From: an uncultured Microthrixaceae bacterium
GTDB lineage: Bacteria > Actinomycetota > Acidimicrobiia > Acidimicrobiales > VFJN01
DNA: 64,000 bases
Reading direction: 5' to 3'
Assembly (NCBI GenBank): GCA_963717755.1
Contig: CAVQWY010000002.1
Coordinates: 682,393-746,392, forward strand
The position numbers and the translations under genes were made by a program. This document shows positions 3,283-41,318 of the stretch, piece after piece (position 1 is the stretch's first letter; each line of letters opens with the position of its first letter). The notes below the pieces were generated by a model. It saw nothing but the letters and a program-made list of their open reading frames with translations. It made no database searches and had not been told where the DNA came from.

Positions 3283-3290
3283 CGACGCGG

Positions 3291-3771: not shown

Positions 3772-4569
3772 GGCCCCTCGTCCCCGACGTGCGACGGGTG
3801 CGGGGTGGGGTAGAGGCTCGGATCGCCGGGCTCGATGCCGGCGGCGCGCAGCTCCTGGTCCACTCGATCCGCCCGGTCCTGGCCGCCCATGCGCGTGAGC
3901 GACCGGGCGGGAGGCGAGGGCTGCACGGCGGCGTCGGCCTCCGCCTTGCCGAGGAGGTCGATGACCTGCTCCCACGAGGACCCGGCGCCCTCGCCGACGA
4001 CCCGGCCGGAGGGCCCGTCGACGAGGATGAAGTACGGCGACACCGGCACGCGGTAGTCGTCCCACGCCTCGCTCGACATGACCGTGGTGACGCCGGCGGG
4101 CGCCAGGTCGGCGACCGCCGCCGGCGACTCGGCGTCGGGGCCGTTCGTGATCACGACCACCCGGGTGGACGGGTCGGCCAGGTGGCGGGTGGGCTCGTGG
4201 CCGAGGGCCTCCCAGAACGTGCCACAGGTGCCACAGCCCGTGGACAGGAACGCGAGCAGCGTGGGGTGGTCGACCCCCACCACGGCCACGTGGGCCGCGC
4301 CGCCTTGCGGCAGGCGGCCGGTGAGGTCGGCGGCGTCGCCCATCGGACCGTCGTCGCGCGGGTCGCGGTACGCCGTCGGCGGTGCGCATCGGGGCGTGCT
4401 GCGACACGGCCGCCGGTCGCCGCGGCGCGGTCGTGGAGCCGTCCTCGAGGTTGACGCCGAGGTCGTGGAGGGCCCGCAGGATCTCGGCGTGCGAGCGGAG
4501 CAACCCGACGACCAGGACCGCGAGGAGGGCCATGGCGAGGGCGAGCGCCACGACGACGGCGGCCATCAT
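3768..4569 (-). pseudogene. Membrane-anchored thioredoxin-like (TlpA/MauD-like) protein, C-G-T-C motif, one frameshift near 4385
   Basis: The N-terminal TM helix MMAAVVVALALAMALLAVLVVGLL is in one frame. The thioredoxin-fold part (LLAFLSTGCGTCGTFWE ... VPVSPYFILVD) is in ORF 3768..4343. The start lies 7 nt after the stop of the Cys-rich gene. Confidence 0.65.
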
Positions 4570-23846: not shown

Positions 23847-24960
23847 TCACTCGAGCTGCGCCGTCACGGCCGCCACCATCTCCTCGACGATGGTCTCGAG
23901 GTCGCGATCCTGGCTGCCAGCCAGGGAAGTGCCCCCGGAACTTGGCCATGTCTGAGTAGTAGCAGATGTGGTCGCCGACCCGAGCTTGGTCGTCGTAGGT
24001 GAGGACCGGCCGCTTGCCACCCGAGGCGTCGGCAACCAGCTCCACGCACTCGAGCAGGCTGGCGGCGTTCGCTTTGCCGCCCCCGAGGTTGTACGCCTCG
24101 CCCGGACGAGGGTCCTGGGCGAAGGCCCAGAACGCGCTGATGACGTCGGCCGAGTGGATCTGATCGCGGACCTGCTTCCCCTTGTAGCCGAAGATCGTGT
24201 ACGGCCCTTCCCGCAGCGCGGTGAGCACGAGGTAGCTGAGGAAGCCGTGCAGCTCCACCCCCGCGTGGTGCGGGCCGGTGAGGCAGCCGCCCCGGAACGC
24301 GCCGGTGCGGAGCCCGAAGTAGCGCCCGTACTCCTGCGTGAGCACGTCGGCCGCCACCTTGGAGGCGCCGAACAGCGAGTGGGTGCAGTGGTCGAGCGAC
24401 ATCGTCTCGTCGATGCCCTCGGCCATGGCGGGGTCGGCGTAGTCCCAGCGCGTCTCGAGCTCGACGAGCGGCACCTGGTTGGGGTTGTCGCCGTAGACCT
24501 TGTTCGTCGACACCGTGATGAACACGGCGTCGGGAGTGTGGCGGCGGGCGGCCTCCAGCAGGTTCAGCGTGCCGCCCGCGTTCACGTCGAAGTCGTCGAA
24601 CGGTCGCGAGGCGGCGAGATCGTGGCTCGGCTGCGCGGCGGCGTGGATGACCAGCTCGTACTGGCCGGCCTGCACGAGGGCGTCGACGGCGGCGCGGTCG
24701 CGGATGTCGGTGTCGTGGTGGGTGTAGCGCTGGCACGTCGCCTCGAGGCGCTCGCGGTTCCACGTCGTGTCCCCGCCCGGGCCGAAGAAGTCGGCTCGCA
24801 TGTTGTTGTCGACGCCGTGGACGTCGAAGCCGAGGCCGTCGAAGAACTCCACCGCCTCCGACCCGATGAGGCCCGCGCTGCCGGTGACGAGCACCTTCAC
24901 GACGGTGCCGCGGCAGCCAGGAGGCGGGGGGACATGGCTCGGGACACTACCGGTTGCCAT
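23847..24960 (-). pseudogene. NAD-dependent sugar epimerase/dehydratase (CDP-paratose-2-epimerase-like), frameshift near 23917
   Basis: [12 protein letters not shown] and [11 protein letters not shown] (YxxxK region). The last ~22 aa ([21 protein letters not shown]) are in ORF 23847..24035. The start is ATG 24960 (GGAG 7 nt upstream) or GTG 24900. Confidence 0.75.
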
Positions 24961-24981
24961 GTCAGACTCCACGAGCCGCCC

Positions 24982-26062
24982 ATGCGAGTCGCCGTCACCC
25001 TCGAGCAGTGCTGGCACCGGGTGCCCGGTGGGACCGCCCGCGCCACGCTCGACACCGTCGCCGCCGTCGCAGGCGCGCGGTGGCGTCGAGCAGGTGGGGG
25101 TGAGCGCCTGGCACCGCGACCCCGCACCGGCGGCGTGGCGGCCGCCGGTGGACGTGCGACGGGTACGGCTCCCGCGGGTCCTCCTCTACGACGCCTGGCA
25201 GCGCCTCCGTCGCCCTCGCGTCGAGGGCGCCACCGGGCCGGTGGACGTGGTGCACTCGACCGCGCACGTGGCGGCGCCGTCGCGGGCACCCATGGTGGCG
25301 ACGATCCACGACCTGCACTTCCTGCACGAGCCGGGGCACTTCACCGCGCGTGGGGTCGCGGTGTTCAACCGGTTCCTCGACATCGTGCGCGACGAGGCCG
25401 CCATCGTGGTCTGCCCGTCGGAGGCCACCCGCGCCGACTGCGAGACGGCTGGCATCGACGCCGCTCGTCTTCGCGTCACGCCGTGGGGCACCAACGCCCA
25501 GCCGGTGGCCGCGGGGGAGGTGGAGCGCGTGCGCCGCACCTACGACCTCACCCGACCGTTCGTGCTCTTCACCGGCACGGTGGAGCCGCGCAAGAACCTG
25601 GGCCGCCTGCTCGAGGCGTTCGGACGGCTGGGCGACGTCGACGCCGAGCTGGTCGTCGTGGGCCCCGAGGGCTGGCACACCGACCTCCCGGACGTCGCGG
25701 CGCGCCGGCTGGGCTTCGTGCCTCAAGCGGACCGCGACGCGCTGTACGCCGCCGCGAACGTCGTCGCCTACCCGAGCCTCCGCGAGGGCTTCGGGCTGCC
25801 GGTGCTCGAGGCCATGGTGCAAGGCGCCGCGGTGGTGACCTCTGCGACGACGTCCACCGCCGAGGTGGCGGGCGACGCCGGCCTGCTCGTGGATCCCCTC
25901 GACGTCGATGCCATCGCCGGTGCCCTCCGCCGCCTGCTCGACGACCCGGAGCTCGCCGCCCGTCTCGGAGCGGCGGCTCGCCGGCAGGCCGCGACCTTCA
26001 CGTGGGACCGGACCGCGGCCGCGGTCACCGACGCCTACCGCGACGCGGTGGAGGCCCCATGA
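24982..26062 (+). pseudogene. GT-B family 1/4 glycosyltransferase, frameshift near 25078
   Basis: The N-terminus [24 protein letters not shown] is in the frame of ORF 23968... The rest is in ORF 24767..26062 (EPRKNL, YPSLREGFGLPVLEAM). Confidence 0.8.
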
Positions 26063-27186
26063 CCGCCACGGTCGGTCTGAACCTCCTGTGGCTCGTGCCC
26101 GGCGCCGTCGGCGGGAGCGAGCAGTCGACGGTGGCCACGCTGCGGGCCCTCCGGGACCTCGCCCCGCCCGACCTCGACCTGCGCCTGTTCGTGCTGGAGC
26201 CGTTCGGCCTCGCCCACCCCGATGTCGTGGCCGCGTTCCCCACCGAGGTGCTGCCCGTGTCGGGTCGCTCGCGGATCGTGCGGGTCGGCGGCGAGGCGTC
26301 GTGGCTGTCGGCCCGCACGCGCCGGTTGGACCTCGTGCACCACGCCGGCGGCACCGCCCCACCGCGGGGGAGGGCGCCATACGTCCTCACCGTGCACGAC
26401 CTCCAGCCGCTCGAGCGCCAAGCCACCCATGGCCGGGGCAAGCGGGCCTACCTCCGCTCCGTCCTTCCGCGATCCGTCCGGCGCGCCCGATCGGTGGCTG
26501 TGCCCAGTGACTTCGTGCGCGAGTCGGTGGTCTCCCGCTTCGACGTCGATCCGGCTCGGGTCGTCACGATCCCGCACGGCGTGGCCCGACCGACGACCGT
26601 CGTCAGCTCCGAAGCCGTGGTGCGCGCCCGCTACCAGCTCGACGGGCCGGTGGTGCTCTACCCGGCCATCACCTACCCGCACAAGAACCACGTCACGCTG
26701 GTCGAGGCGTTCGCCCGAGTGCGCGAGCACCACCCCGACGCGGTGCTCGTCCTGTCAGGAGCCGAGGGGGCCTGTGAGGGGGCGGTGCTGGAGCAGGTCG
26801 ATCGGCTCGGGCTCCAGCGCAGCGTCCGCCGGGTGGGTCGCATCTCGGACGCCGACGTGGCCGGCCTCTACGCGGCGGCGACGGTGGTGGCGGTGCCCTC
26901 GACCTACGAGGGGTTCGGGCTGCCCGCCGCCGAGGCCATGGCGGCGGGAGTGGCCCTGGTGGCCGCCGATGCCACTGCCCTGCCAGAGGTCGTGGGCGAC
27001 GCCGGGCTCCTCGTCGAAGCCACCGATCCGCAGGCTTGGGCCGACGCCATCGGCCGGCTCCTGGGTGACCAGGGGGAGCGCGATCGGCTGGTCGCACGGG
27101 GCCGTGATCGGGTGCTGCGGTACTCGTGGCGGGCCAACGCGGAGGCGTTCGCCGACCTCTACCGGGCGGCGGTGGCCACCGGCTGA
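26059..27186 (+). CDS. GT-B family 1/4 glycosyltransferase
   Basis: The ATGA overlaps the upstream stop. Intact ~375 aa. YPHKNH and PSTYEGFGLPAAEAMAAG motifs. Confidence 0.85.
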   Translation: MTATVGLNLLWLVPGAVGGSEQSTVATLRALRDLAPPDLDLRLFVLEPFGLAHPDVVAAFPTEVLPVSGRSRIVRVGGEASWLSARTRRLDLVHHAGGTAPPRGRAPYVLTVHDLQPLERQATHGRGKRAYLRSVLPRSVRRARSVAVPSDFVRESVVSRFDVDPARVVTIPHGVARPTTVVSSEAVVRARYQLDGPVVLYPAITYPHKNHVTLVEAFARVREHHPDAVLVLSGAEGACEGAVLEQVDRLGLQRSVRRVGRISDADVAGLYAAATVVAVPSTYEGFGLPAAEAMAAGVALVAADATALPEVVGDAGLLVEATDPQAWADAIGRLLGDQGERDRLVARGRDRVLRYSWRANAEAFADLYRAAVATG

Positions 27187-27241
27187 GCCCGTCGGGGCCG
27201 AATGGGTCCGGCCGCGCGGCTCTTGTAGGGTGAGCGACCCT

Positions 27242-28048
27242 ATGGGTAAGGCATCGTCGTCGAAGAAGGTGGCCCGCGCGGCGCGAGCCGGCGGCCGGGT
27301 GTCCTCCGGGCAGCCCCGCGGCCTCCTGTTCCCCAGCGTCCTCACGCTGATCGTGGTGCTGGGGGTGGCCTTGGTCGTGTACGCCCGGAACGACCGCAGC
27401 AACGAGGATCTCGGCGGGGTCCCGCAGCTCGGCGACCACATCCACCAGGCGATCGCCATCAACATCTGCGGCGTCGAGCAGGCGGTCGTGCCCGAGTGGG
27501 AGCCGAGCCCGATCGGCCTCCACACCCACGGTGACGGCGTCATGCACATCCACCCGTTCTCGCAGCTCGGCGTGGGCACCAACGCCACCCTCGGCCGCTT
27601 CATCCAGAGCGCGCGCGACGAGGGCAACCTGGACTTCTCACTGTCGGACACCAAGCTCGAGTACCTCGACGAGACCTACGAAGAGGGCGAGAGCAAGTGC
27701 GAGGGGGTCGAGGATCCCGAGCTGCGCCTGGCGTACTGGGACGACGTGCAGGACGCGGCGTCCGTGCCTGAGGTGACCACCGGCGGCTTCTCCGACAAGC
27801 GCCTCACGAAGAACGGCTCCGGGGTCACGATCTTCTTCGGCGACCCCGACGCAGACATCCCGAAGCCGGCGAGCGCTCCGCAGCTCGAGGCTCTGGGTGC
27901 CGTCGACCAGGACCCGAGCGCGACCACCTCGACGACCTCGGGCGAGACCACCACCACCGCGCCCGGTGCGACCACCACGACCGCGCCAGGGGCCACGACC
28001 TCGACGACGGCCGCGGGCGACACCACGACGACGACCGCGGCGCCCTAG
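27242..28048 (+). CDS. Membrane-anchored hypothetical protein with Thr/Pro-rich tail
   Basis: MGKASSSKKVARAARAGG, one TM helix, a globular part (HIHQAIAINICG...HTHGDGVMHIHPF) and a TTTAPGATTTT low-complexity end. Confidence 0.6.
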   Translation: MGKASSSKKVARAARAGGRVSSGQPRGLLFPSVLTLIVVLGVALVVYARNDRSNEDLGGVPQLGDHIHQAIAINICGVEQAVVPEWEPSPIGLHTHGDGVMHIHPFSQLGVGTNATLGRFIQSARDEGNLDFSLSDTKLEYLDETYEEGESKCEGVEDPELRLAYWDDVQDAASVPEVTTGGFSDKRLTKNGSGVTIFFGDPDADIPKPASAPQLEALGAVDQDPSATTSTTSGETTTTAPGATTTTAPGATTSTTAAGDTTTTTAAP

Positions 28049-28053
28049 TCGCG

Positions 28054-29053
28054 ATGCGGGCGGTCGTGCTCGTCGGGGGCTTCGGCACTCGCCTTCGTCC
28101 GCTGACGCGCGCGACCCCCAAGCAGATGCTGCCGGTGGTGAACCGGCCGATGATCGAGCGGGTGCTCGAGCACCTGGCCGACCACGGCGTCACGTCGGCG
28201 GTCCTGAGCCTCGGGTACCGCCCCGATGCCTTCCAGGACGCCTACCCGTCGGGACGCTGCGCCGGGGTCGACCTGCACTACGCCATCGAGCCCGAGCCGC
28301 GTGACACCGCCGGCGCGATCCGGTTCGCGGCCGTCGACGCGGGCATCACCGAGCGCTTCCTGGTGTTGAACGGCGACATCCTGACTGACCTCGACATCGG
28401 GGCCCTGCTGGCCGCCCACGAGCGCACCGGTGCCGAAGGGACGATCGCCCTCCACCGGGTGCTGGACCCGTCGGCCTTCGGGGTCGTCCCCACCGACGAC
28501 GACGGGCGCGTGACGGCGTTCATCGAGAAGCCGCCACGAGACGAGGCGCCCACCGACCTGATCAACGCCGGGACGTACGTGCTGGAGCCGTCGGTGCTCG
28601 ACGCGGATCACGCCGGACGTGCCCGTCAACGTCGAGCGGGTCACGTTCCCCGCCATGGTGGCGGACGGCTCGCTCTACGCCCTCGACGGCGACACGTACT
28701 GGATCGATGCCGGCGTCCCCACCACCTACCTCGCCGCCAACCTCGACCTCATCAACGGCCATCGCCTCCCCTCGGAGCCCGGGGTGCACCCAGACGCCGA
28801 GGTCGACGGCGCGGTGGTCGAGGCGGTCATCGGAGCGGGCGCCCGGATCGGCGAGGGCGCGCTCGTCTCGACGTCGGTGGTCTTCCCGGGAGCCGTCGTG
28901 GCCGAGGGCGCCGTGGTGCGGGATGCCATCATTGGCGCTCGGGCCTCCATCGGGGCCGGAGCGGTGCTCGAGGGGGGCACGGTCGTAGGCGACGATGAGG
29001 TCGTCCCCGCCGGGGCGGAGCTGGCAGGGGTGCGGATCCCAGAGGAGAGCTGA
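28054..29053 (+). pseudogene. manC: Mannose-1-phosphate guanylyltransferase-type sugar nucleotidyltransferase with LbH tail, frameshift near 28605
   Basis: MRAVVLVGGFGTRLRPLT...KQMLPV, EKP, INAGTYV. After the shift, ITPDVPVNVERVTFPAMV... and left-handed-helix hexapeptide repeats. Confidence 0.8.
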
Positions 29054-29994
29054 TGCAGGCGCTGGTCACCGGAGGAGCAGGGTTCATCGGCTCGACGCTC
29101 GTCGACCGGCTGCTCGCCGAGGGCCATCGCGTCGACGTGGTGGACGACCTCTCGAGCGGTTCGCTGGCCAACCTGGCCGAGGCGAGGGCGGATCGCAGCA
29201 ACGAGCTGAAGGTCCACCAGGTCGACATCCGCGACCCGGCCGTGATCGAGGTCATCGGCCGGCGCCAGCCCGAGGTCGTCTTCCACCTCGCCGCGCAGGC
29301 CGACGTGCGGGTGTCCGTCGCCCGACCCTCGTTCGACGCCGAGATCAACATCATCGGGAGCCTCAACGTCCTCGAAGGCGCGCGCGTCGGTGGCACCCGC
29401 AAGGTGGTGTTCGCGTCGAGCGGCGGCACGATCTACGGCGAGCCGGCGCCCGCCGACCTCCCCGTCAAGGAGTCGCACCCGCAACAACCGCTCTCGCCGT
29501 ACGGCGTGGCCAAGCGGGTGGTCACCGACTACCTCCACGTGTACCGGGAGCTGCACTCGATCGAGTTCACGTCGCTGGCCATGGCCAACATCTACGGGCC
29601 CCGGCAGGATCCGCACGGCGAGGCGGGGGTGGTGGCGATCTTCGCCGGGCTGCTCCTCGAAGGGAAGCCGTGCACCGTGTTCGGGGACGGCAAGCAGACG
29701 CGCGACTTCGTCTACGTCGACGACGCCGTCGACGCCTTCGTCCGGGCCGCCGATCGCGGCAGTGGACTGCTGTGCAACGTCGGCACCGGCGTGGAGACCT
29801 CGGTGAACGAGCTGTACGAGGCGATGGCGGCGGCGGCCGGGGTGACGACACCGCCCGTGCACGCCCCGGCGCGCGCGGGTGAGCTCGCCCGCAGCGCGCT
29901 CGATCCGGGGAGGGCCGCCCTCCACCTCGGGTGGGAGCCCTGGACCGATCTGCCCACCGGCGTCGCCGAGGTCCTGCGCTGGTTCCAGGGCTGA
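29053..29994 (+). CDS. UDP-glucose 4-epimerase-like NAD-dependent epimerase
   Basis: Intact 313 aa. ALVTGGAGFIGS and SPYGVAKRV (YxxxK). TGATG overlap with manC. Confidence 0.85.
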   Translation: MQALVTGGAGFIGSTLVDRLLAEGHRVDVVDDLSSGSLANLAEARADRSNELKVHQVDIRDPAVIEVIGRRQPEVVFHLAAQADVRVSVARPSFDAEINIIGSLNVLEGARVGGTRKVVFASSGGTIYGEPAPADLPVKESHPQQPLSPYGVAKRVVTDYLHVYRELHSIEFTSLAMANIYGPRQDPHGEAGVVAIFAGLLLEGKPCTVFGDGKQTRDFVYVDDAVDAFVRAADRGSGLLCNVGTGVETSVNELYEAMAAAAGVTTPPVHAPARAGELARSALDPGRAALHLGWEPWTDLPTGVAEVLRWFQG

Positions 29995-30001
29995 GCGCGC
30001 G

Positions 30002-30703
30002 CTAGCGGAACAGGTCCTCCTGCGAGGGCCGCACCACCTCGGCGTGCACCTCACCCCGTCCGAGCCAGCTCGGGTCGACGCCGCGCACCACGGCTGCGGC
30101 CACGCCGGACGCCTTGCCCATCACGAGCTCGGCCGCCGCCGCCAGCTCGTCGACGACGCACACCTCGGTGACCTGCAGCTCGCGACCGCGGGTGTCCTCC
30201 GTGCCCCGCAGGTCGACCACGGCGCGGATGCCCGCGCAGCCGATGGCGACATCGGTGAGGCCGCGCCGCCAGGGTCGGCCGAAGGTGTCCGAGATGATCA
30301 CCGCCACCTCGACGCCGAGGGCCGCGCGCAACCCGTCCCGGATCCGGCGGGCCGAGCGATCGCTGTCGTCGGGGAGCAGCGCGGCCCAGCCCTCGTCCAC
30401 GTTGGAGAGGTCGACGCCGGCGTTGGCGCACACGAAGCCGTGCTTCGTCTCGCTGATGATGAGGTCACCCCGCCGGCGCACCACGCGCACCGATTGCTCT
30501 TCGACGATGGCCTTGTGCCCGCGCGGGTCCGACGGGTCGATGGGTGCCATCGCGCCTTCGGCCTTCGACACGACCTTCTGCGTGACCACCACGACGTCCC
30601 CGTCGCGAAGTCCCGGCTCGGCGGCCGCGATGAAGCCGGCCAGGTCGTCGCCCGCCCGCACCTCCGGGATGCCCGCCACGCCGAACACCTCGAGGCGCGT
30701 CAC
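30002..30703 (-). CDS. cofE: Coenzyme F420-0:L-glutamate ligase
   Basis: The GTG overlaps the cofD stop (GTGA). VVVTQKVVSKAEG, HGFVCANAGVD and ISDTFGRPWR motifs. Embedded in long ORF 30002..31408. Confidence 0.85.
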   Translation of the reverse strand: MTRLEVFGVAGIPEVRAGDDLAGFIAAAEPGLRDGDVVVVTQKVVSKAEGAMAPIDPSDPRGHKAIVEEQSVRVVRRRGDLIISETKHGFVCANAGVDLSNVDEGWAALLPDDSDRSARRIRDGLRAALGVEVAVIISDTFGRPWRRGLTDVAIGCAGIRAVVDLRGTEDTRGRELQVTEVCVVDELAAAAELVMGKASGVAAAVVRGVDPSWLGRGEVHAEVVRPSQEDLFR

Positions 30704-31620
30704 GCCAACACCACCTCGGCGAGCGCCCGGGCCTCGTCGGGGCCGTGCATGATCGTCGGAGCCACCACGCAGCGCAGGCCCTCGGCTTCCACCGCGGCGG
30801 CGTGGTCGGCGTCGACCTCGTCGATCACCAGGGTGGCCACGAGAGGAGCGTAGAGGCGGGCCACGCCGACCACCGATGCCTCGTGACCGAGCTCGCGCAG
30901 GAGGCGGTCGGCGGGACCCTTGAGCGCGGCGCCGGCGATGATCGGGGACACGGCCACCGCGTCCTCGCGGCGGGCGACGACCGCGTCCCGCACGCCCGGC
31001 ACCGCGAGGACGGGATCGATCGACACCAACGGGTTCGACGGTGCCACCACGACCCGCCGGGCCGAGGCGATGGCCTGGAGCACGAACGGCGCCGGACGGG
31101 CGGTGTCGGCGCCCTCGAACCGGATGGCCTCGACGGGCACGTCGTGGTGCCGTTGCACGAAGTACTCCTGGAACCCGATCTCGCCCTCCCCAGCCACCGT
31201 GACCCGCGTCTGCACGCGATCGTCGGTGACGGGGAGCAGGCGCAGCCCGAGCCCCCACGCGTCGGCGATCTCGGCGCTCACCTCGGACAGCGCGGCGCCG
31301 GACCGCAGGCGGTCGGTGCGGTACAGGTGGGTGGCGAGGTCGCGGTCGCCGAGGTTGAACCACGTGACGGCGCGCGGGTAGCGGCCGAGGGCATCCATGG
31401 CGTGCCACGTCTCTCCCGCCAACCCCCAGCCCCGGTCCGGGTCGATGGCACCGGCGACGGTGTAGGTGATGGTGTCGAGGTCGGGGCTGATGTGCAGTCC
31501 GTGGAGCTCGACGTCGTCGCCCACGTTCACGATGGCGGTGATGTCCGCGGGCGGGACGGCTCGCACGAGCCCCGCCAGCAGGCGGGCCGCGCCGACCCCG
31601 CCCGAGAGGACGGTGATCAG
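30700..31620 (-). CDS. cofD: 2-phospho-L-lactate transferase
   Basis: The ORF track starts at GTG 31566. The conserved N-terminal [18 protein letters not shown] lies upstream in the same frame with no ATG/GTG/TTG, so CTG 31620 is proposed. Body motifs [14 protein letters not shown] and PSNP. Confidence 0.8.
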
Positions 31621-33629
31621 CTGATCCCCCGCAAGCGCCCGGACAGCAGCTCGATGTCAGCGTCGACCATCATCGTCACGAGGTCTTCGAACGACGTGCG
31701 CGGTTGCCAGCCGAGCACCGCCTTGGCCTTCGACGCATCGCCGATGAGCAGGTCGACCTCCGCGGGGCGCATGAACTTCTCATCGATCGTCACGTGGTCC
31801 TCCCAGCGCAGGCCCACGTGCTCGAAGGCGATCTGGCAGAACTGGCGGACCGAGTGCGTCTCGCCGCTCGCCACCACGTAGTCGTCGGGCCGATCCTGCT
31901 GGAGCATCATCCACATGGCCTCGACGTAGTCACCGGCGAAGCCCCAGTCGCGCTCCGCGTCGAGGTTGCCGAGGGCGAGCGTGTCCGTGAGCCCGAGCTT
32001 GATCCGCGCCACCGTGTGGCTGACCTTCCGAGGCAAGAACTCCATCCCTCGCCGAGGCGAGTTGTGGGTCACGACGAGGCCAACGCCGGCCGCGAACCGT
32101 TCGGTCTCGGTAGCCAGGTCGCACATCCAGCCGCGGTAGGTGCCTTCGTCCACTCGACGGACCTCGTCCTGAGGCTCGCGGAGATGGGCACCCTCGTTCC
32201 CAACCGTCAGGCCCGGGCTCAGGTTGATCAGATAGCTGTCGCCACCCCCGAGCGCGCCACCCTGGCGGTAGATGCTGACTCGGCGGCCCAGGGTGGTGCG
32301 GGCCAACCACACCAGCCCGGCGGCCAGCACCGGAGAGGTCGTGCAGAAGGCCTTGAACGGATCGATCCCGTGGCCGGCCCGCAGCCCGTCGCCGAGGTTG
32401 TACGCCGCGAGGAACGCCTCTTGGAGGTGCGGTGCCGCGTTCAGGATCCGCTTCGGCACCCGCTTGTGGCGGTCGGCGCAGTACAGCTCGGAGCGGAGCA
32501 TGCGCAGATATGGCGCGTTGCCGTTGAGGCGCAGCGCCGGCGTCCGGCGATCGCTGAAGGCCGACGGGCCTCCGAGGTACTTGACGCTGGTCCCGCCGCT
32601 CACGCGCTCCCAACAGCTGGCCGCTTCGGCGAGCACGGCGTCGTCATGGCACGTGATGCACCCGTTCCCTCGCTCGCTCACCCACCCCTCCGCCGTCAGG
32701 ATCCCGAGCAGCCAGGCCTCTTCCTCCGTGAGCACCGTGCCCAGGGTCTGCCCGGGTTGATCCGCCAACACGAGACGCTCGCCCGCTACCAGCGACGCCG
32801 CCTCTCGGTCGCCACTAGGGGTGATGTGGACATGGTCGGGTGTCGACTCGATGACTCCGCCCCGGCCGTGGACGATGGTGGTCGGTCCGTCGTACCAGTA
32901 CGCGGTGCGCGCGAGGACCCGGACGAAGCGCTCGCCGTCCCACACCTGCAGGTCGCCGCCGGGATACGTGAGCCGGCCACCCGGCTCGCCATCGCGCGGG
33001 TGTGGCATCAGCGCACCGATCGGGACGACGTCGATGAGGCCGTCGCGCAGGGTCACGACGGGCGTGTTCTCCACCAAACTCTCGTGGTTGAACAGGATGC
33101 CACTGGAGGCGTGGAGGTCGTAGGACTCGCGGTAGTTGACGGTGATCCAGTGGCCGTAGAGCTTGGCCACGCCGTAGGGGGACCGCGGGTAGAAGGGCGT
33201 CTTCTCCGTCTGCGGGACCTGCTGCACCTTGCCGAACATCTCGCTGGAGCTGGCTTGGTAGAAGCGGATCTCCGGGTCGACGATCCGGATGGCGTCGAGG
33301 AGTCTGGTGACGCCGAGGGCGGTGATCTCGCCGGTGAGCACGGGCTGCGTGAACGACGTCTGCACGAACGACTGGGCGGCGAGGTTGTACACCTCCGTGG
33401 GCCGGCACTCGCGGAGGATCGAGATGAGCGAGGCCTCGTCGAGCAGGTCGCCGGACGATGTGTAGGGATCGAGCACGACGCGGTCCTGGAGGTGGGCGAT
33501 GCGCTCGAAGTTCGTGGTGCTGCTGCGCCGCACCATGCCGATGACCTCGTAGTCCTTCTCGAGGAGCAGCTCGGCCAGGTACGAGCCGTCCTGACCGGTG
33601 ATGCCGGTGATGAGCGCACGCTTGGTCAT
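31617..33629 (-). CDS. gmd: GDP-mannose 4,6-dehydratase interrupted by an in-frame intein
   Basis: Intact 670 aa. N-extein [19 protein letters not shown]...[10 protein letters not shown]...GILFNHE (183 aa). C-extein [13 protein letters not shown]...[11 protein letters not shown] (147 aa). Confidence 0.9.
32061..33080 (-). mobile_element. Intein (340 aa, Ser1 ... His-Asn / Ser+1) with LAGLIDADG-type homing endonuclease domain
   Basis: Starts [14 protein letters not shown] (AGT at 33080..33078). TPDH block [12 protein letters not shown] and [26 protein letters not shown]. Ends GLVVTHN (AAC at 32063..32061), followed by SPRRG. Confidence 0.85.
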
Positions 33630-33662
33630 CCGGCCGTTCTACCCCGGGGTTGTGACGGTGGC

Positions 33663-33679
33663 TGCCAACTAGGTTGGCA
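33663..33679. promoter_or_regulatory. 17-bp palindrome TGCCAAC-TAG-GTTGGCA, candidate operator
   Basis: Perfect 7-3-7 inverted repeat. It ends 2 nt before the GTG of the XRE regulator and sits in the 52-bp gap to divergent gmd. Confidence 0.4.
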
Positions 33680-33681
33680 AG

Positions 33682-34134
33682 GTGGACTCCCTCGGGCGGC
33701 GCATCGCCAAGCGGCGGGCGGAGCTCGGATGGACCCAGCAGGAGCTGGCCGATCGCATCGCCGTGTCCCGGGTCGCGCTGTCCCACCTCGAGAGCGACCT
33801 GAGCTCAGCCGGCGAGCGCACGGTCGCGCTGCTGGCGGGTGTCTTCGGTCTGGAGCCCCATGAGCTCGTGTCCGGCTCGACGTACCCAGCCGCCAAGGCC
33901 GACCGCCTGCCGCTCGTGGTCGCTCGCCACACCGAGGTCGAGCTCCAGTGCCGCCTCCTCGATCGCGACCTCGACGAGCTCGCCCGCACCGGTGACCGCA
34001 CCCGCCTCGACGGCTGGGCTGCCCGGCTCGCCGCCCTCCACGGTGAGGCCCACGACGCCCGCCAGCGCACCCTGCTCGACCAGGCCGGCGCCCGCCTCCG
34101 CCACGCCCAGTCGCGCGGCACCGCCCATTCTTGA
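33682..34134 (+). CDS. XRE-family helix-turn-helix transcriptional regulator
   Basis: LGRRIAKRRAELGWTQQELADRIAVSRVALSHLE is a classic Cro/C1-type HTH. Intact 150 aa. Confidence 0.85.
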   Translation: MDSLGRRIAKRRAELGWTQQELADRIAVSRVALSHLESDLSSAGERTVALLAGVFGLEPHELVSGSTYPAAKADRLPLVVARHTEVELQCRLLDRDLDELARTGDRTRLDGWAARLAALHGEAHDARQRTLLDQAGARLRHAQSRGTAHS

Positions 34135-34188
34135 GCTGGTTCGCTGTGGTCTTCGCAGCAAGACAGCTCGAGAACGCGGGTGGACCGG

Positions 34189-35101
34189 TCAGTCGCTGAG
34201 GATGCGGTGGCGCATGTCGTCGAGGAGGTCGGCGACCGTCTGCTCGATCGAGATGGTGGGCGCCCAGCCGGTGGCGGCGCGGAGCTTCGATGCGTCGCCG
34301 CGCAGCACCGGGAGGTCGATCGGGCGGAGCAGCGCGGGATCGGTCACCAGCTCGATGGGCCGCTCGGCCAGGCCGACCAGCAGGTCGGCGAGCGTCTGGA
34401 TGGCGAGGTCCTGGCCGGTGCAGAGGTTGTAGACGTCGCCCGGCGTGCCGTGCTCGATGAGCAGCCGGTACGCGCGCACGACGTCGCGGACGTCGGTGAC
34501 GTCGCGGCGAGCGGACAGGCTCCCGACCGGGATGGTGTCGGCACCGTCGCGCTCGGCGCGGGCGATGCGGGCGGCGATGGCCGGGGCGACGAAGTGCTCG
34601 GACTGACCTGGCCCGAGGTGGTTGAAGGGCCGGACGCGCACCACCCCGAGGCCGTGGCCGAGGAACGCCTGTTGGGCCGAGCGCGTCGGCCGCGACCTTG
34701 GAGGCGGCGTAGGGGCTGGTGGGTCGCAGCGGGGAGTCCTCGGTGAGCGGCAGCTCGGCCTCGGTGACGACGCCGTAGACGTCGGCGCTCGCCACCGCCA
34801 GGACCCGGTCGACTCCGGCGGCCGTGCACGCTCGCAGCACGTGCAGCGTGCCCTCGGCGTTCACCCGGAGGACCTCCACGGGGTCCCGCCACGACGCGCC
34901 CACGTCGGCCCAGCCGGCCAGGTGGTACACGGCGTCGGGAGCCGCCTCCGTCAGCGCCGCCTCGACGCCGGGACCGTCGGTGATGTCCACGACGTGGTCG
35001 CCCTGGTGGTCGAGCGTCGTCACCTCGTCGCCCGCCTCGCGGAGGTGCTCCACGAGGTGGCGGCCGACGAACCCCAGACCTCCGGTGACCACCGCTCGCA
35101 T
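34189..35101 (-). pseudogene. rmd: GDP-4-dehydro-6-deoxy-D-mannose reductase-like SDR (Rmd/GDP-sugar reductase), frameshift near 34690
   Basis: MRAVVTGGLGFVGRHL...SPYAASKVAAD in one frame. QQAFLGHGLGVVRVRPFNHLGPGQ... is in ORF 34189..34644. Adjacent to gmd. Confidence 0.7.
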
Positions 35102-35111
35102 GGCGCGCACA

Positions 35112-36048
35112 CTACGGGAGACGGGGGTGTCCTCCCGCCAAGAGCCGAGCGGCGTCGAACGCGGCTCGCACCCGCCGCCGCAGGGGAGCGACGTGGGGAC
35201 GCCGGACCCGAACCAGCGGACCGAGCACGTCGGTGCCGACGGCCACGACGATCCCGCCGAGGGCCCGGGCCCACGCCCCGATGGCGACCCGCGCGCCCGC
35301 CGTGCCGCGTCACCACCACCAGGCGGTTGCGCCGGTTGAGGTGGTCGAGGAGCGGTGTCCGCTCGCCACCGGAGCTGGCCCGGTGGAGGTGGCGGACGAC
35401 CGAGGTGGGCACGTATCGGTACCGCCACCCCCGCTTGGCGCCGCGCCAGGCGAGATCGGCATCCTCCGCGTAGAGGAAGAGCCTCTCGTCGAAGTGGCCC
35501 ACCTCGTCCAGGTAGTGGCGACGCAGCAGCACGGCCGCCCCGCACCAGCCCCACACGTCCTCTTCGCGGTCGTACTGCCCGCGGTCGACCTCGCCGTACC
35601 CGCGGTCGTGCAGCTCCCACGTGGGGCCGAGCTCGTTGCCCACGTTGTTGATGACCGCCCGCCCGTCGTCGTCGGGCTCGGCCAAGAGGATCTTCGGGCT
35701 CGCGGCGCCCACCTTCGGGTCGGCATCGAGCGCCGCCGCGAGGGGGGTCAGCCACCCCGGGTCGACGAAGGCGTCGGAGTTCACCAACGCCACGGCGTCG
35801 AGGTCGCCCAGCTCGACGAGGCCGCGGTTCATGCCGCCCGCGTACCCGAGGTTGGCGCCGGTCTCCACCAGGCGCACGTTGGAGTGGCGCTCCGTCCAGC
35901 GATCGGTGGAGCCGTCGGTGGAGCCGTTGTCGACCACCACCACCTCGAGCGAGCCGGTCCACTCCGTGGCCAGCAGGTGCTCGACGCAGCGATCGATGAT
36001 GCCCGCGTTGTTCCAGCAGAGCACCACGGCGCGCACTCGCTGGATCAC
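35112..36048 (-). pseudogene. GT-A family 2 glycosyltransferase (rhamnosyltransferase-like), frameshift near 35280
   Basis: VVVVDNGSTDGS, NLGYAGGMNRG and YAEDADLAWR motifs. The C-terminal ~65 aa and the TAG stop (35112) are in another frame. Confidence 0.8.
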
Positions 36049-36088
36049 CGGGTGATCGTACGGGCGGAGCCGCTGGGGGAGCGGACCG

Positions 36089-36325
36089 CTACTTGCGCTC
36101 GAGCACCGCGCCGAGGCGCTCTTCGACCATCTTCAGTCGCTCACCGACCAAGGCGCCCACCACCTCGAGGGCGCCCTTGGCCTCGTCGGCCTGCCCGCTG
36201 AGGACCTTGTTCAGCTCGTTGCGACGCACCTGGAGGCGCTGGAACGCGATGACGCCGAGACCGACGGACACGTACGCCGCGTCCTTCACGGCGTTGGTGA
36301 CGTCGTCGAGGGGAGATCGAGCCAT
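36089..36325 (-). CDS. Small conserved hypothetical protein (78 aa)
   Basis: ATG at 36325 preceded by GAAGGAG 6 nt upstream. MARSPLDDVTNAVKDAAYVSVGLGVIAF... Confidence 0.6.
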   Translation of the reverse strand: MARSPLDDVTNAVKDAAYVSVGLGVIAFQRLQVRRNELNKVLSGQADEAKGALEVVGALVGERLKMVEERLGAVLERK

Positions 36326-36400
36326 GGTGCGCTCCTTCGGGGGCCGCGAGGTGGTGCTGCGGGCACCGTACAGGCCCTCTGCTAACTGCTGCAAGCGCTT

Positions 36401-39400
36401 GTGCGAACGTGCGCAAGACCGCCGTCATGGGGCCTGCAGCCCGCTCGGGTGGGCGGAGGCGCGCGAGGCCCGGAGTACCCTCGGACAACCGTGGAGCCCC
36501 CTACCCCTGGCATCGACGCGCCCGATGACGCGCCGCTGGACACGCCACCGACTGCGCCCGCGGTCGTCGCCGTGGTCGTCGCGCGTGACCCCGGACCCTG
36601 GTTCGAGGAGGCGTTGGCGGCCCTCGCGGCCCAGGACTACCCGAACCTCGACATCCTCGTCATCGACGCCAACAGCCCCACCGAGGTCAAGCCGCGGGTC
36701 GGCCACGCCGCCCCGGGTGCCTTCGTGCGACGCCTCGACGAGGACCCCGGGTTCGGGGCCGCCGCCAACGAGGTGCTCGAGGTCGTCGAGGGCGCCGCCT
36801 TCTACCTGCTCTGCCACGACGACGTCGCGCCCGAGCCGGACGCGCTGCGCACGCTCGTCGAGGAGGCGTTCCGGTCCAACGCCGCCCTCGTCGGCCCGAA
36901 GCTGGTCGATTGGGACGACCCGCGCCGGCTCCTCCAGGTGGGCCAGGGCATGGACCATGCCGGCTACGGCATCCCGCTGGTGGAGCGGGGCGAGCTCGAC
37001 CAGTCGCAGCACGACGGCGTGCGCGACGTGTTCACCGTGCCGGGGCCGTGCACGCTGGTGCGAGCCGACCTCTTCGCCGAGATCGGCGGGTTCGACGAGG
37101 GCATCAGCGACTTCCTCGACGACGTCAGCCTGTGCTGGCGGGCGCAGATCGCCGGCGCGCGCGTGATCGTGGCGCCCGATGCCCGCGTCCGGCACCGCGA
37201 CGCGCTGGCCGAGCGCGCCGGCTACGACGGCCGCCGCCGCCTCCAAGCCCGTCACCGCCTCCGCATCGTGCTCAGCTGCTACGGCCCGCTCGGCGTGGCT
37301 CGCGCCGTCGTGCAGACCGTCGTGCTCAACATCATCGAGGTCGTCTACGCGCTGGCCGCTGGTCGCCGGCAGCGGGTGGGGGACGTCTTCCTCGCGTGGT
37401 CGTGGAACCTCCGGCACATCGGCGAGCTGCGCGAAGCGCGCCAGCAGGTCAAGGGCTTCCGGAACGTCTCCGACGGCGAGGTGCGCGCCGGGATGAGCCG
37501 GGGGAGCGCCCGGCTGAACCAGTTCCTCCGAGGCCAGATCGGGCGCGGGGAAGATCGCTTCTCGGGGCTCGCTCAGAGCGGGCGCGACGTGGCGGGGGTG
37601 CTCCGCTCGGGCACCCTCCGCGCGTCGGCCACCGTGTGGGCGGTCGTGGCCATCGTGCTGGTGGCGGGGAGCCGGCACCTGATCACGAGGGGCGTGCCGA
37701 CCGTCGGGGAGATGGTGGCGTTCGGCTCGTCGCCGCTCGATCTGCTGCGCAGCTGGATCAGCGGGTGGCGCACCGCCGGGCTGGGGTCGGAGGCCCCCGC
37801 CCCGACCGCGTTCGGGCTCCTCGGTGCGCTCGGGGTCGCCGTCGTCGGGACGATGGGCATGCTGCGCACCGTGCTGACCCTCGGGATGCTGCCGCTCGGC
37901 GCCCTCTTCGCCTACCGCCTGCCGCGCCCCACGGGCTCGCGGGGCGCGCAGATCGCGTGCCTGATCGTCTACGTCACCGTGCCGCTGCCGTACAACGCCC
38001 TGGCCCACGGCCGCTGGGGGGCGTTGGTGCTCTACGCCGCCGCGCCGCTGTTGGTGGCGCTGCTCGCCCGTGCGAGCCGGGTCGTCCCCTTCGGCGACGT
38101 CGGCGGTCCCGTCGGGCCTGCGGTCCAGCCCCGGAGCTGGCGCAACCACGTCCTCGCCCTCGGGCTCACCACCGCCGTGGTCGCCACGTTCGTGCCGGCC
38201 GTCGTCGTGCTGGTGGTGGTGATGGCCGCGGCCATGGCCATCGGCGGGGTCATCGCGCTGAACACCAGCGGCAGCGTCCGCATGCTCGGCGCGGCGACGG
38301 GCGGCGCGCTGCTCGCCGTGCTGCTGCACCTGCCGTGGAGCCTCGACTTCCTCATGCCGGGGACGACGCTCTCCGCGCTGGTGGGCGTGCCGAGCGCCAG
38401 CGAGCCCTCCGACCTCGGGGCGCTGCTGCGGTTCGACGTCGGCCCGTTGGGAAGCGGACCCGTGGGGCTGTGCTTCCTGGTGGCCGCCGCCCTCCCCCTC
38501 CTCATCGGTCGCGCCGAGCGGCACACCTGGGCGGTCCGTGGCTGGACGCTCGCCGTCGTCTCGTTCGCCGCGGCATGGGCGGCCCAGCGGGGCACGTTGG
38601 GCGTCGCCCTGCCGCCGGTCGACGTGCTGCTCGTACCTGCCGCCGTGGGCCTGGCGCTGGCGGCCGCCATGGGCGTGGCGGCCTTCGAGGTCGACCTGCC
38701 CGGGTACCGCTTCGGCTGGCGGCAGATCGCGTCGGGGGTGGCCGCTGCCGCCGTCGTGGCCGGCATCGTGCCGGTGCTGGGCGCCTCCTTCAACGGACGC
38801 TGGTCGATGCCGGCCGGCGACCACTCGCGGTCCCTTGCGTTCATCGACGCCGAGAGCGACGAGACGCCCTTCCGCGTGCTGTGGCTCGGCGACCCCGCCG
38901 CGCTTCCCCTCGCCGGATGGGAGCTCGACGAGGGCCTCGCCTATGCCAGCACCGACGCCGGGGCGCCGGGGCTGGAGAACCTCTGGGTGGGCTCCGACGA
39001 CGGCCGCACCGGGTTGCTGGGCGATGCGCTCGACCTGGCCCGCACCGGTCAGACCGCGCGGTTGGGGCGGCTCCTGGCCCCGATGGGGGTGCGCTACCTC
39101 GTGGTGCCAGAGCGCCTGGCGCCGGCTCCCTTCGCCACCGAGCCGTTCCCGGTGCCGGGTCGGCTCATCGCCACGCTCGCCGCGCAGCTCGACCTCGAGC
39201 CCCTCGACGTCCCCGCCGGGCTGACGGTGTTCCGCAACCAGGCGTTCATGCCGATGCGCGCGGGGCTCCCGGCGTCCGTCGCCGTGCCGACCGACGGGGG
39301 CATCGCGGCCGCCCTCGGCATCGACCTGTCGGACACGCCTGCGGTCCTCCCGGACGAGGACGGCCGCCTGCGCTGGTCGGGTCCCGTGGAGGCCGACACC

Positions 39401-39658
39401 ACCGTGCTGCTGTCGGCGTCGCACTCTGACCGCTGGGAGCTCACCGTGGACGGCACGGCCATCCCGTCCGACAAGCCCTTCGGGTGGGCGAACGGGTTCA
39501 CGATCAGCGAGGACGGCGAGGCCACCCTGCGGTTCCGAACGTCGCCGCTGCGCTACGGGGTGCTCGCCCTGCAGGCCCTGGCCTGGCTGTGGGCGATCCG
39601 GGTCTTGCTCCGCCTCCGGTTGAACCCGGCCCGCACCACCGAGGATGACGTCGCATGA
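36401..39658 (+). CDS. Large fusion protein: N-terminal GT-A family 2 glycosyltransferase, polytopic membrane domain, C-terminal extracytoplasmic domain
   Basis: Uninterrupted 1085-aa ORF. The true start may be GTG 36491. VVVARDPGPWFEEAL...LLCHDDV...DDVSLCWR, then more than 10 hydrophobic helices. Confidence 0.85.
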   Translation: MRTCARPPSWGLQPARVGGGARGPEYPRTTVEPPTPGIDAPDDAPLDTPPTAPAVVAVVVARDPGPWFEEALAALAAQDYPNLDILVIDANSPTEVKPRVGHAAPGAFVRRLDEDPGFGAAANEVLEVVEGAAFYLLCHDDVAPEPDALRTLVEEAFRSNAALVGPKLVDWDDPRRLLQVGQGMDHAGYGIPLVERGELDQSQHDGVRDVFTVPGPCTLVRADLFAEIGGFDEGISDFLDDVSLCWRAQIAGARVIVAPDARVRHRDALAERAGYDGRRRLQARHRLRIVLSCYGPLGVARAVVQTVVLNIIEVVYALAAGRRQRVGDVFLAWSWNLRHIGELREARQQVKGFRNVSDGEVRAGMSRGSARLNQFLRGQIGRGEDRFSGLAQSGRDVAGVLRSGTLRASATVWAVVAIVLVAGSRHLITRGVPTVGEMVAFGSSPLDLLRSWISGWRTAGLGSEAPAPTAFGLLGALGVAVVGTMGMLRTVLTLGMLPLGALFAYRLPRPTGSRGAQIACLIVYVTVPLPYNALAHGRWGALVLYAAAPLLVALLARASRVVPFGDVGGPVGPAVQPRSWRNHVLALGLTTAVVATFVPAVVVLVVVMAAAMAIGGVIALNTSGSVRMLGAATGGALLAVLLHLPWSLDFLMPGTTLSALVGVPSASEPSDLGALLRFDVGPLGSGPVGLCFLVAAALPLLIGRAERHTWAVRGWTLAVVSFAAAWAAQRGTLGVALPPVDVLLVPAAVGLALAAAMGVAAFEVDLPGYRFGWRQIASGVAAAAVVAGIVPVLGASFNGRWSMPAGDHSRSLAFIDAESDETPFRVLWLGDPAALPLAGWELDEGLAYASTDAGAPGLENLWVGSDDGRTGLLGDALDLARTGQTARLGRLLAPMGVRYLVVPERLAPAPFATEPFPVPGRLIATLAAQLDLEPLDVPAGLTVFRNQAFMPMRAGLPASVAVPTDGGIAAALGIDLSDTPAVLPDEDGRLRWSGPVEADTTVLLSASHSDRWELTVDGTAIPSDKPFGWANGFTISEDGEATLRFRTSPLRYGVLALQALAWLWAIRVLLRLRLNPARTTEDDVA

Positions 39659-41272
39659 GGTCGTCCCGCCTCACCTCGCTCGTGCTGCTGGCCGGTGCCG
39701 TCACAGGTGGCCTCGTGCTGGACGCCGCCGATGAACCGGCCGGCCCCGCGGACGACTCGCCCACCATCGTGGCCGGCGTCGCCATCCCTGCCGCCACGCC
39801 ACCCGGCACCCTCACCTCCACCTGGTACTGCGCAGGCGGCACCGCCACCGACGACGGCATCGCCGACCACGTCCTGCTGCTGGCCAACCCCACCGACCGT
39901 CCGCGGGAGGCGACGATCACGGTCCTGCCGGGCACCGTGTCGGCGGCGCCGGCCGTGGTCGACGAGGCCGCCGGCGGCGACACCACCACGACCACCGCGG
40001 CGTCGGCCACCACGACCACCACCGAGGCGGAGCCGCCTCCCGCGCCCACGCAGGTCGCCCTCCCCGCGCAGAGCCGCATCGAGGTGTCGCTCCGCGAGCT
40101 CGTCGAAGCACCGCTCGCGGGTGCCATCGTCGAGGTCGACGGCGGGGAGGTGGCCGTCGAGCACCAGATCACGGATCTCAGCGAGGACGGCGGGGGCCGG
40201 GCCACGGCGCCGTGCAGCTCGACGGCGGCACAGCGAGTGGTCCTTCCCCTGGGGCGTCACCTCCCGCGGCGCCCGGGAGCTCCTCGTGTTCATGAACCCG
40301 TTCCCCGACGACGCCACCGTCAACGTCGACTTCGCCACCGACGAGGGCACCCGCGACACGCTCCGCTTCCAGAACTTCGTCGTCCCGGGCCGCAGCGTGG
40401 TGGGCGCCTTCATCGACGAGGACGTCACCCGGCGGGCCCAGGTGTCCGCCCAGGTCCACGTGGGCAGCGGCCGCCTGGTGGTCGATCGCATCCAGACCTT
40501 CGACGGCAGCGACCCCGCCCTGGACGGCATCACCCTCGGTCTCGGCGCGCCGACGCCGGCCGAGACGTGGATCTTCCCCGACGGCAAGGTCGACGAGGGG
40601 ATCACCGAACAGATCGTCGTGTTCAACCCGACCGAGGACGTGGCGGAGGTGGTGGTGGAGGTGCGCCTCGACGACCCGACCACGAACGGCGTGCCGGAAC
40701 CGTTCGAGCTCACCATCCCACCGAGCCGGTTCTCGATCGTCGACCTGCACCAGCCGGACACCGAGGTCACCGAGGACACGCCCAAGCGGATCCCCGACGG
40801 CGTGGCCCACACCATCCTCGTCAACTCGTTGAACGGGGTGCCGGTGGCGGCGGAGCGCGTCGTCACGGCCTCCGAGCCGAACTCGACCGTCGGCGTCGGG
40901 GCCACGCTCGGCTCACCCGTGGCCGCACCCACGTGGCTGTTCCCGGGGGGCGGTGTGTCGGAGGAGCGCGACGAGTTCCTCACGCTGTTCAACGCGTCGA
41001 ACGACACCATCCGGTTCAGCGTCACGGCGCTCACCGGCTCCAGTCCGCTGGCGGTGCAGGACCTCCAAGACCTGGAGCTGGTCGCCGGCGGCCGGCTCTC
41101 GATCCAGCTGAGCCAGCACGTGGCCCGGGAGGACCTGCCGCTGGTGGTCGAGGCCGACGGCCCGATCGTCGTCGAGCGGGGGCTGTACCGGATCCAGGGT
41201 CGGGGCATCTCGCAGTCGATGGGCATCCCGATCGGGGTCGGCGTGCTCGTCCCCGATCCCATCAACGGGTGA
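39655..41272 (+). pseudogene. DUF5719-like secreted/anchored protein, frameshift near 40230
   Basis: The ATGA overlaps the upstream stop. Signal/anchor MRSSRLTSLVLLAGAV, WYCAGGT. After the shift, EWSFPWGVTSRGARELLVFMNPFPDD... Family name recalled from Streptomyces annotations. Confidence 0.6.
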
Positions 41273-41281
41273 ACTGCCGTT

Positions 41282-41293
41282 GAAATCGATTTC
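41282..41293. promoter_or_regulatory. 12-bp AT-rich perfect palindrome GAAATCGATTTC
   Basis: Only AT-rich patch in the 46-bp gap upstream of the PhyH-family gene. Could be an operator or part of a -10 region. Confidence 0.25.
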
Positions 41294-41318
41294 GATCGGG
41301 TCGGGGGGCTGGGCGGTG

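Follow-up and report, generated by a model that had tools for sequence, protein, structure and literature searches.

Evidence for a class-1 intein with a LAGLIDADG homing endonuclease domain in the GDP-mannose 4,6-dehydratase of an uncultured Microthrixaceae bacterium

We analysed a stretch of 64,000 nucleotides (nt) of an uncultured Microthrixaceae bacterium (assembly GCA_963717755.1, contig CAVQWY010000002.1, positions 682,393 to 746,392; hereafter the window), in which the gene gmd, encoding GDP-mannose 4,6-dehydratase (Gmd), carries a long in-frame insert. The insert is very probably a class-1 intein of canonical type that harbours a LAGLIDADG homing endonuclease (HEN), located in the NHE^SPRRG motif of Gmd (the caret marks the insertion point), since four independent lines of evidence, namely family conservation, profile homology, predicted fold and selection, lead to this assignment. 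A first-pass annotation of the window had already interpreted the insert as a full-size intein with a HEN domain, and this interpretation was borne out by every feature of class-1 inteins that can be tested on a sequence, apart from a hit to a curated profile of the Hint (splicing) domain.

The insert in Gmd and its assignment as an intein

The open reading frame (ORF) at 31617..33629 of the minus strand codes for a Gmd precursor of 670 amino acids (aa) with an in-frame insert. The insert comprises precursor aa 184-523 (32061..33080, minus strand; 340 aa, 1020 nt) and is preceded by GILFNHE at aa 177-183 and followed by SPRRG from aa 524, exactly as given in the first-pass annotation, whose quoted motifs (the Ser1 block, TPDH, two LAGLIDADG-like motifs, a block F-like segment and VVTHN followed by Ser) were also all recovered at their places. 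The calculated masses are 73.8 kDa for the precursor, 36.6 kDa for the intein and 37.3 kDa for the spliced Gmd. Scanning of the NCBIfam and Pfam collections matched the flanks, each time in two stretches, to TIGR01472 (453.8 bits against a cutoff of 415, E 3.6e-136) and to PF16363 (E 2.8e-133). The host protein thus has the equivalog-level match to Gmd, together with the catalytic motifs of short-chain dehydrogenases/reductases (SDR) and NHESPRRG.

Features of the gmd gene and its insert (positions in the window; residues of the intein numbered from Ser1).
31617..33629, minus strand: gmd precursor ORF, 670 aa, 73.8 kDa, stop codon at 31617-31619, matching TIGR01472 (E 3.6e-136)
33081..33629, minus strand: N-extein, Gmd aa 1-183, 96% aa identity to the intein-bearing sister allele L007 and gapless against empty alleles; motifs GITGQDG at aa 9, the catalytic motif SSSE at aa 127 and YGVAK at aa 152, ending in GILFNHE
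32061..33080, minus strand: intein, 340 aa, 36.6 kDa, from Ser1 to His339-Asn340
32745..33080, minus strand: N-terminal portion of the Hint (splicing) domain (intein aa 1-112), modelled as all-beta and matching the mini-inteins NpuDnaB and Mtu RecA
33039..33080, minus strand: block A, intein aa 1-14, with Ser1 as the first nucleophile
32820..32861, minus strand: block B, TPDH, with T80, D82 and H83 invariant in the family alignment; aligns with block B of the Mtu RecA intein
32181..32744, minus strand: LAGLIDADG HEN domain, intein aa ~113-300, alpha/beta with two pseudo-symmetric halves; assigned from the model structure, from Foldseek matches to I-Tsp061I, I-SceI and the HEN domains of TliVMA and PI-PkoII, and from a ratio of nonsynonymous to synonymous substitution rates (dN/dS) of 0.113
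32679..32723, minus strand: block C, first LAGLIDADG motif, LLGILTAEG, with the acidic residue E131 (D/E in 51/52 representatives)
32436..32468, minus strand: block D, with R207, P209, R211, L213, N214 and A215 invariant; aligns with KRIPEFVF of PI-PkoII
32382..32426, minus strand: block E, second LAGLIDADG motif, AYNLGDG, with the acidic residue D231 (D/E in 51/52 representatives)
32286..32336, minus strand: block H-like helix, with A253, G255, L256, L259 and L264 invariant; helix 250-262 in the model
32061..32180, minus strand: C-terminal portion of the Hint domain (intein aa 301-340); aligns with the PI-PkoII C-terminus ...YDL..F..G.GLV.HN
32085..32138, minus strand: block F, containing D321
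32061..32084, minus strand: block G, VGLVVTHN, with H339-N340, followed by Ser+1 at 32058-32060
31620..32060, minus strand: C-extein, precursor aa 524-670, first residue Ser+1 (SPRRGMEF...)

Joining aa 1-183 to aa 524-670 yields a protein of 330 aa, which is 87-95% identical, at 100% coverage, to over 120 Gmd proteins that lack an intein and are 330-331 aa long; where named, these originate from metagenome-assembled genomes (MAGs) of Acidimicrobiales, Acidimicrobiia or Microthrixaceae, names that point to an actinobacterial host of Acidimicrobiia type. The spliced protein also aligned end to end with the Pseudomonas aeruginosa GMD 1RPN (E 1.1e-131), gapless at the junction, and the NHESPRRG loop is uninterrupted in every solved GMD. 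At the DNA level, the spliced coding sequence of 993 nt has the length of the empty alleles at the syntenic loci L004 and L006 and is 87-88% identical to them with zero gaps; the gene order common to the window, L004 and L006 is GT2 glycosyltransferase (GT2), GT2, epimerase, helix-turn-helix (HTH) regulator, gmd, cofD, cofE, epimerase and nucleoside triphosphate (NTP)-transferase. Because the spliced coding sequence is gapless against the empty alleles, the natural target site can be read from them as ...CTGTTCAACCACGA(G/A)^TCGCC(G/T)..., the empty junction in L004/L006 being GCATCCTGTTCAACCACGA[A/G]^TCGCC.... Most relatives of the host are without the insert. Both the clean excision point and the empty gmd alleles in relatives, which the first-pass annotation had proposed to look for, were therefore found.

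Searching with the insert as a single sequence retrieved 34 homologues at E<=0.01, all of them in Gmd at the same codon, with Ser or Cys at position 1 and with HN followed by Ser in all 26 homologues that cover the C-terminal junction. A family profile (A1) of 16 trimmed inteins, in the alignment of which T80, D82 and H83 are invariant, was then searched against a representative library of 1.84 billion proteins and yielded 3111 relatives at E<=1e-3, 137 of them at E<=1e-30. Among the best 148 representatives, 70 carry the insert at this position between flanks that resemble Gmd, and the 52 full-length members of this group all match TIGR01472. Of these 52 Gmd-intein cluster representatives, 31 have Cys at position 1, 10 have Ser and 6 have Thr; the terminal Asn is present in all 52 and the penultimate His in 35, the C-extein opens with Ser in 49 and with Thr in the other 3, and each of the two LAGLIDADG acidic residues (the positions of E131 and D231) is kept as D or E in 51. 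Orthologs carrying the same insert without Ser1, His-Asn and Ser+1, which the first-pass annotation had considered incompatible with an intein, are not what the family presents: the splicing residues are kept across homologues. In 44 relatives with hosts other than Gmd, among them DNA polymerase B, Rad51/RadA, RecA, subtilases and glycosyltransferases, Pfam Intein_splicing (PF14890) was found in 30 and LAGLIDADG_3 in 38. Against the PDB, the A1 profile matched PI-PkoII (E 7e-8), the TliVMA intein (E 1e-7) and the Mtu RecA intein (E 7e-4), with blocks B, C, D, E, F and G aligned.

An AlphaFold2 model of the intein, built with A1, reached a predicted local distance difference test score (pLDDT) of 89.3 and a predicted template modelling score (pTM) of 0.89. 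The top Foldseek matches of the model were full-size HEN inteins, i.e. TliVMA (7qsu; E 3.8e-20, TM 0.66), PhoVMA, PI-PkoII and PI-SceI, followed at lower ranks by the free LAGLIDADG enzymes I-Tsp061I (E 4.8e-5) and I-SceI, the LAGLIDADG domains of WhiA, and the mini-inteins NpuDnaB, TFIIB, RadA and Mtu RecA. According to this model, the insert combines a Hint fold with a LAGLIDADG alpha/beta fold.

Several observations weigh against the assignment. When the insert was scanned as a single sequence, no Hint or intein hit was obtained at E<=1 in Pfam or NCBIfam, Intein_splicing (PF14890) included, and the only Pfam match, LAGLIDADG_3 (E 0.11), stayed below threshold with 13.2 bits against a cutoff of 22.5; a single-sequence phmmer search of the PDB gave marginal intein matches. 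In addition, the all-oxygen nucleophile pair Ser1 and Ser+1 is a minority combination in a family in which most members have Cys1, and inteins with Ser1 and Ser+1 often splice more slowly. Single-base errors inside the intein are also conceivable given the indels in neighbouring genes, though the frame is intact. The first-pass annotation had listed a missing Hint hit as grounds for refuting the intein; taken literally, the hit is missing from Pfam and NCBIfam, but the profile and structure evidence overturns the conclusion. We therefore rejected the missing hit as a refutation, and in view of those results we attribute it to the limited sensitivity of the curated model. Two gmd-site homologues, P0025 and P0029, bear a precomputed PF14528 match.

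Predicted splicing, selection and mobility

A splicing route for the window intein can be proposed from the established class-1 pathway. Following translation of the 73.8-kDa precursor, Ser1 (S184) would carry out an N-O acyl shift at Glu183-Ser184, aided by Thr80 and His83 of block B, whereupon Ser+1 (S524) would attack the ester and a branched intermediate would be formed by trans-esterification. Cyclisation of Asn340, aided by His339, would then free the 36.6-kDa intein, and a final O-N shift would restore the native NHESPRRG in an active Gmd of 37.3 kDa. In extended SDR enzymes, the loop that is split here (NHESPRRG) contacts the nucleotide-sugar and forms the substrate-binding loop. Because the insertion splits this loop, which no solved GMD has interrupted, the unspliced precursor should be inactive; inactivity of the host protein without splicing is the usual way in which inteins protect themselves from deletion. 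Once freed, the intein would probably cut intein-less gmd across ...TTCAACCACGAG^TCGCC... by means of its single-chain, two-motif LAGLIDADG domain (E131, D231), and double-strand-break repair would then copy the intein into the cut allele.

Purifying selection acts on all three parts of the intein. In comparison with the intein-bearing sister L007, dN/dS was 0.098 for the intein (HEN 0.113, N-terminal Hint part 0.084, C-terminal Hint part 0.050) and 0.055 for the exteins. The same pair is 84% identical in aa sequence over the intein and 94% over the exteins, the intein thus evolving faster between close relatives. The GC content at third codon positions (GC3) is 0.871 in the intein, 0.946 in the exteins and 0.90-0.955 in six neighbouring genes, and the synonymous divergence (dS) from L007 is 1.1 for the intein, about twice the 0.59 of the exteins. 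The lower GC3 and higher dS reflect either a history different from that of the host gene or a weaker codon bias on the intein.

An unlikely alternative is that the intein is splicing-competent but that its endonuclease no longer homes, the HEN domain serving as a structural scaffold or being in early decay while the element is inherited purely vertically in this lineage. In a neighbour-joining tree of the exteins, the window and L007, both intein-bearing, are sisters among 119 empty alleles, which fits a single, old gain of the intein in their common ancestor followed by vertical descent. Their inteins are only 84% identical, so no recent homing took place between the two, and the Thermosynechococcus member P0028 has Ala in place of the Asp of the second LAGLIDADG motif, showing that decay occurs in the family. 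On the other hand, dN/dS of the HEN domain lies far under neutrality, E131 and D231 are intact with their acidic positions each kept in 51 of 52 clusters, and the intein occupies only 2 of 121 close alleles. Moreover, the aa identity of the window to the distant hosts L001 and L002 is higher in the HEN domain (68-71%) than in the exteins (59-63%), and this contrast between distant and close pairs hints at past horizontal transfer. The reading that we prefer is an intein whose HEN probably homes.

It is very improbable that the insert is permanent and does not splice, either as an exapted Hint/LAGLIDADG module in a 74-kDa Gmd or as the inactivation of a gmd pseudogene. Splicing of the window intein is a prediction from sequence, and the frame-disrupted neighbours would allow for regional gene decay; however, such an insert would leave split a loop that is unbroken in every solved GMD, it would have no need of the splicing residues that are all kept across phyla, and the exteins, with a dN/dS of 0.055, evolve under strong purifying selection. 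It is scarcely credible that an assembly or chimera artefact joined an unrelated intein to gmd, because despite signs of single-base insertion errors in the window, the same architecture recurs on numerous independent contigs that stem from different projects (L001, L002, L007, L008, L009-L011), with the junctions in frame and at the same codon on each contig.

Distribution of the gmd site and genomic neighbourhood

Inteins occupy the NHE^SPRRG site in no fewer than 52 Gmd clusters (50% identity), which come from several phyla and from viral contigs. The named sources are Actinomycetota, Acidimicrobiales, Nitriliruptorales, Anaerolineae/Anaerolinea (Chloroflexota), Thermosynechococcus, a MAG labelled as Acidobacteria and Candidatus Aquilonibacter. 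Three IMG/VR viral contigs of 52-117 kb encode the intein: L009 (85 kb; 2302-4434) and L011 (52 kb; 2332-4359) carry a homologous intein in gmd at the same site, and L010 (117 kb) gives a comparable match to the intein, the host ORF having been read for L009 and L011 only. The intein of L011 apparently begins with Thr (NHE^TMADFMP); in L009, NHT takes the place of NHE at the end of the N-extein. Viruses are possible vectors of the intein between phyla. A more far-reaching interpretation goes beyond selfish insertion: the NHE^SPRRG site of gmd would be a widespread and largely uncatalogued intein hot-spot, splicing would act as a conditional post-translational switch on the supply of GDP-deoxyhexoses from which envelope glycans are made, and the element would be shuttled from phylum to phylum by viruses. 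In our judgement, this interpretation is distinctly improbable.

Some Gmd proteins of the representative library contain two inteins (P0038, 1087 aa; P0058, 1043 aa), the second one directly before the catalytic SSE motif (YQAS^S...LAHN^SSEMFG and FYNAG^C...FSGN^SSEEFG). Inteins therefore enter gmd at two points or more, and the two seen here both lie in motifs of the active site; within the window, a search for a second intein copy found none.

Gene callers often begin gmd at an internal Met within the intein, even on long contigs (for example P0008, P0009, P0020, P0026 and P0031). Decay or frameshifting of many homologues was considered and rejected for those checked, since the DNA of L001 and L002 holds intact full-length ORFs, that of L002, which corresponds to P0009, being 670 aa long. 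Intein-containing gmd is thus systematically mis-annotated as short or partial Gmd, and the public records of the homologues are labelled just 'GDP-mannose 4,6-dehydratase'. For the 670-aa precursor of the window, a search for an identical protein returned no record. The proteins P0032 (449 aa, on a 70-kb ENA contig) and P0033 (227 aa, on a 38-kb ENA contig) resemble out-of-frame translations of gmd-intein genes and could be decayed copies or assembly frameshift errors.

In the window, gmd belongs to a conserved cluster of envelope-glycan genes (23900-41300), where it is flanked on one side by an XRE-type HTH gene and on the other by cofD and cofE, two F420 genes. The cluster also contains several GT2 and GT4 glycosyltransferases, three other SDR epimerases/dehydratases and an NTP-transferase resembling mannose-1-phosphate guanylyltransferase, and its gene order is identical in L004, L006 and L007. 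Relative to L004, where the orthologues are intact, the frame is changed in 5 of ~16 syntenic genes, encoding a GT4 glycosyltransferase, an NTP-transferase, an epimerase of 303 aa, a GT2 of 311 aa and a DUF5719 protein, in each case by one insertion of +1 nt and never in a long homopolymer (~25069, ~28602, ~34677, ~35296 and ~40245). Because there is one lesion per gene and all are of the same kind, the data suggest assembly insertion errors rather than old pseudogenes. The first-pass annotation had set the uninterrupted gmd ORF against its disrupted neighbours; five neighbours are indeed frame-disrupted, but the contrast is uninformative. At five insertions per 17.4 kb, an ORF of 2013 nt would stay intact by chance with P ~0.56, so that its integrity says nothing about selection on the intein.

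Related inteins and significance

Our full-text literature search found one prior mention of a gmd intein: Cheng et al. (2022, PMC9403480) note in passing, without analysing its site or distribution, that gmd contains a type II (full-length) intein in Thermosynechococcus strains from Taiwan and India. The supposition in the first-pass annotation that gmd might be an uncatalogued insertion site hence does not hold, the intein having been reported in Thermosynechococcus and the site being common in metagenomes. The Thermosynechococcus intein shares with that of the window the gene, the codon (P0028 of Thermosynechococcus sp. Uc ends in ...GWIHN^SPRRGETF) and the Hint and LAGLIDADG architecture, and P0028 is homologous to the window intein, the match at E 7.6e-38 having 36% identity and extending across 83% of the query. 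It differs in its cyanobacterial host, in Cys1 (P0023, P0025) instead of Ser1, in WIHN instead of VTHN, in the motif-2 Ala of P0028 and in an identity of only 36-40% to the window intein.

The best structural matches were TliVMA (7qsu/7qss), PhoVMA (7qst) and PI-PkoII (2cw7), with Foldseek E-values of 3.8e-20 to 2.4e-16 and TMq of 0.56-0.66. Archaeal VMA and DNA polymerase inteins were also the best profile-sequence matches (E ~1e-7) and have blocks A-H in the same order and the HN end; however, they reside in V-ATPase A and DNA polymerase B in another domain of life, are 14-20% identical and start with Cys1, unlike the Ser1 of the window. PI-SceI, the yeast VMA1 intein (1vde/1lws), is the prototype of a two-domain splicing element and homing endonuclease and was matched by Foldseek at E 5e-11 to 5e-9, but with a TM of only 0.39-0.44 and a eukaryotic host; it is ~454 aa long and has an extra DNA-recognition region in its Hint domain. 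The Mycobacterium tuberculosis RecA intein (PI-MtuI) is likewise an actinobacterial class-1 intein, whose ATPDH block B aligns with TPDH of the window, yet its host is RecA and the splicing domain alone is comparable (E 7e-4), the HEN domains being without detectable closeness.

Table 2 of Novikova et al. (2016, PMC4760082) gives 10 inteins in archaeal UDP-glucose/GDP-mannose dehydrogenases, from Euryarchaeota. As presented in that table, these offer a precedent for nucleotide-sugar enzymes, rather than replication proteins, as hosts, although the enzyme fold and site are unrelated and the hosts archaeal; the comparison concerns the host enzyme, not intein homology. The word 'dehydratase' is absent from the main text of that article.

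The gmd site is thus not new, while the Ser1 allele of Acidimicrobiia and the breadth of the family appear to be undescribed in the searchable literature. The element is real but an ordinary mobile element, which would not surprise a specialist and reveals no new mechanism. The appropriate annotation of the 670-aa product is an intein-containing Gmd. The window provides a well-documented intein in a sugar-nucleotide enzyme, not in a replication or repair protein, and with its relatives it forms a comparative set with a defined homing site and natural empty alleles, Ser1/Ser+1 and Cys1 variants, a second gmd site and viral copies, which is useful for studying site choice, nucleophile switching and spread across phyla.

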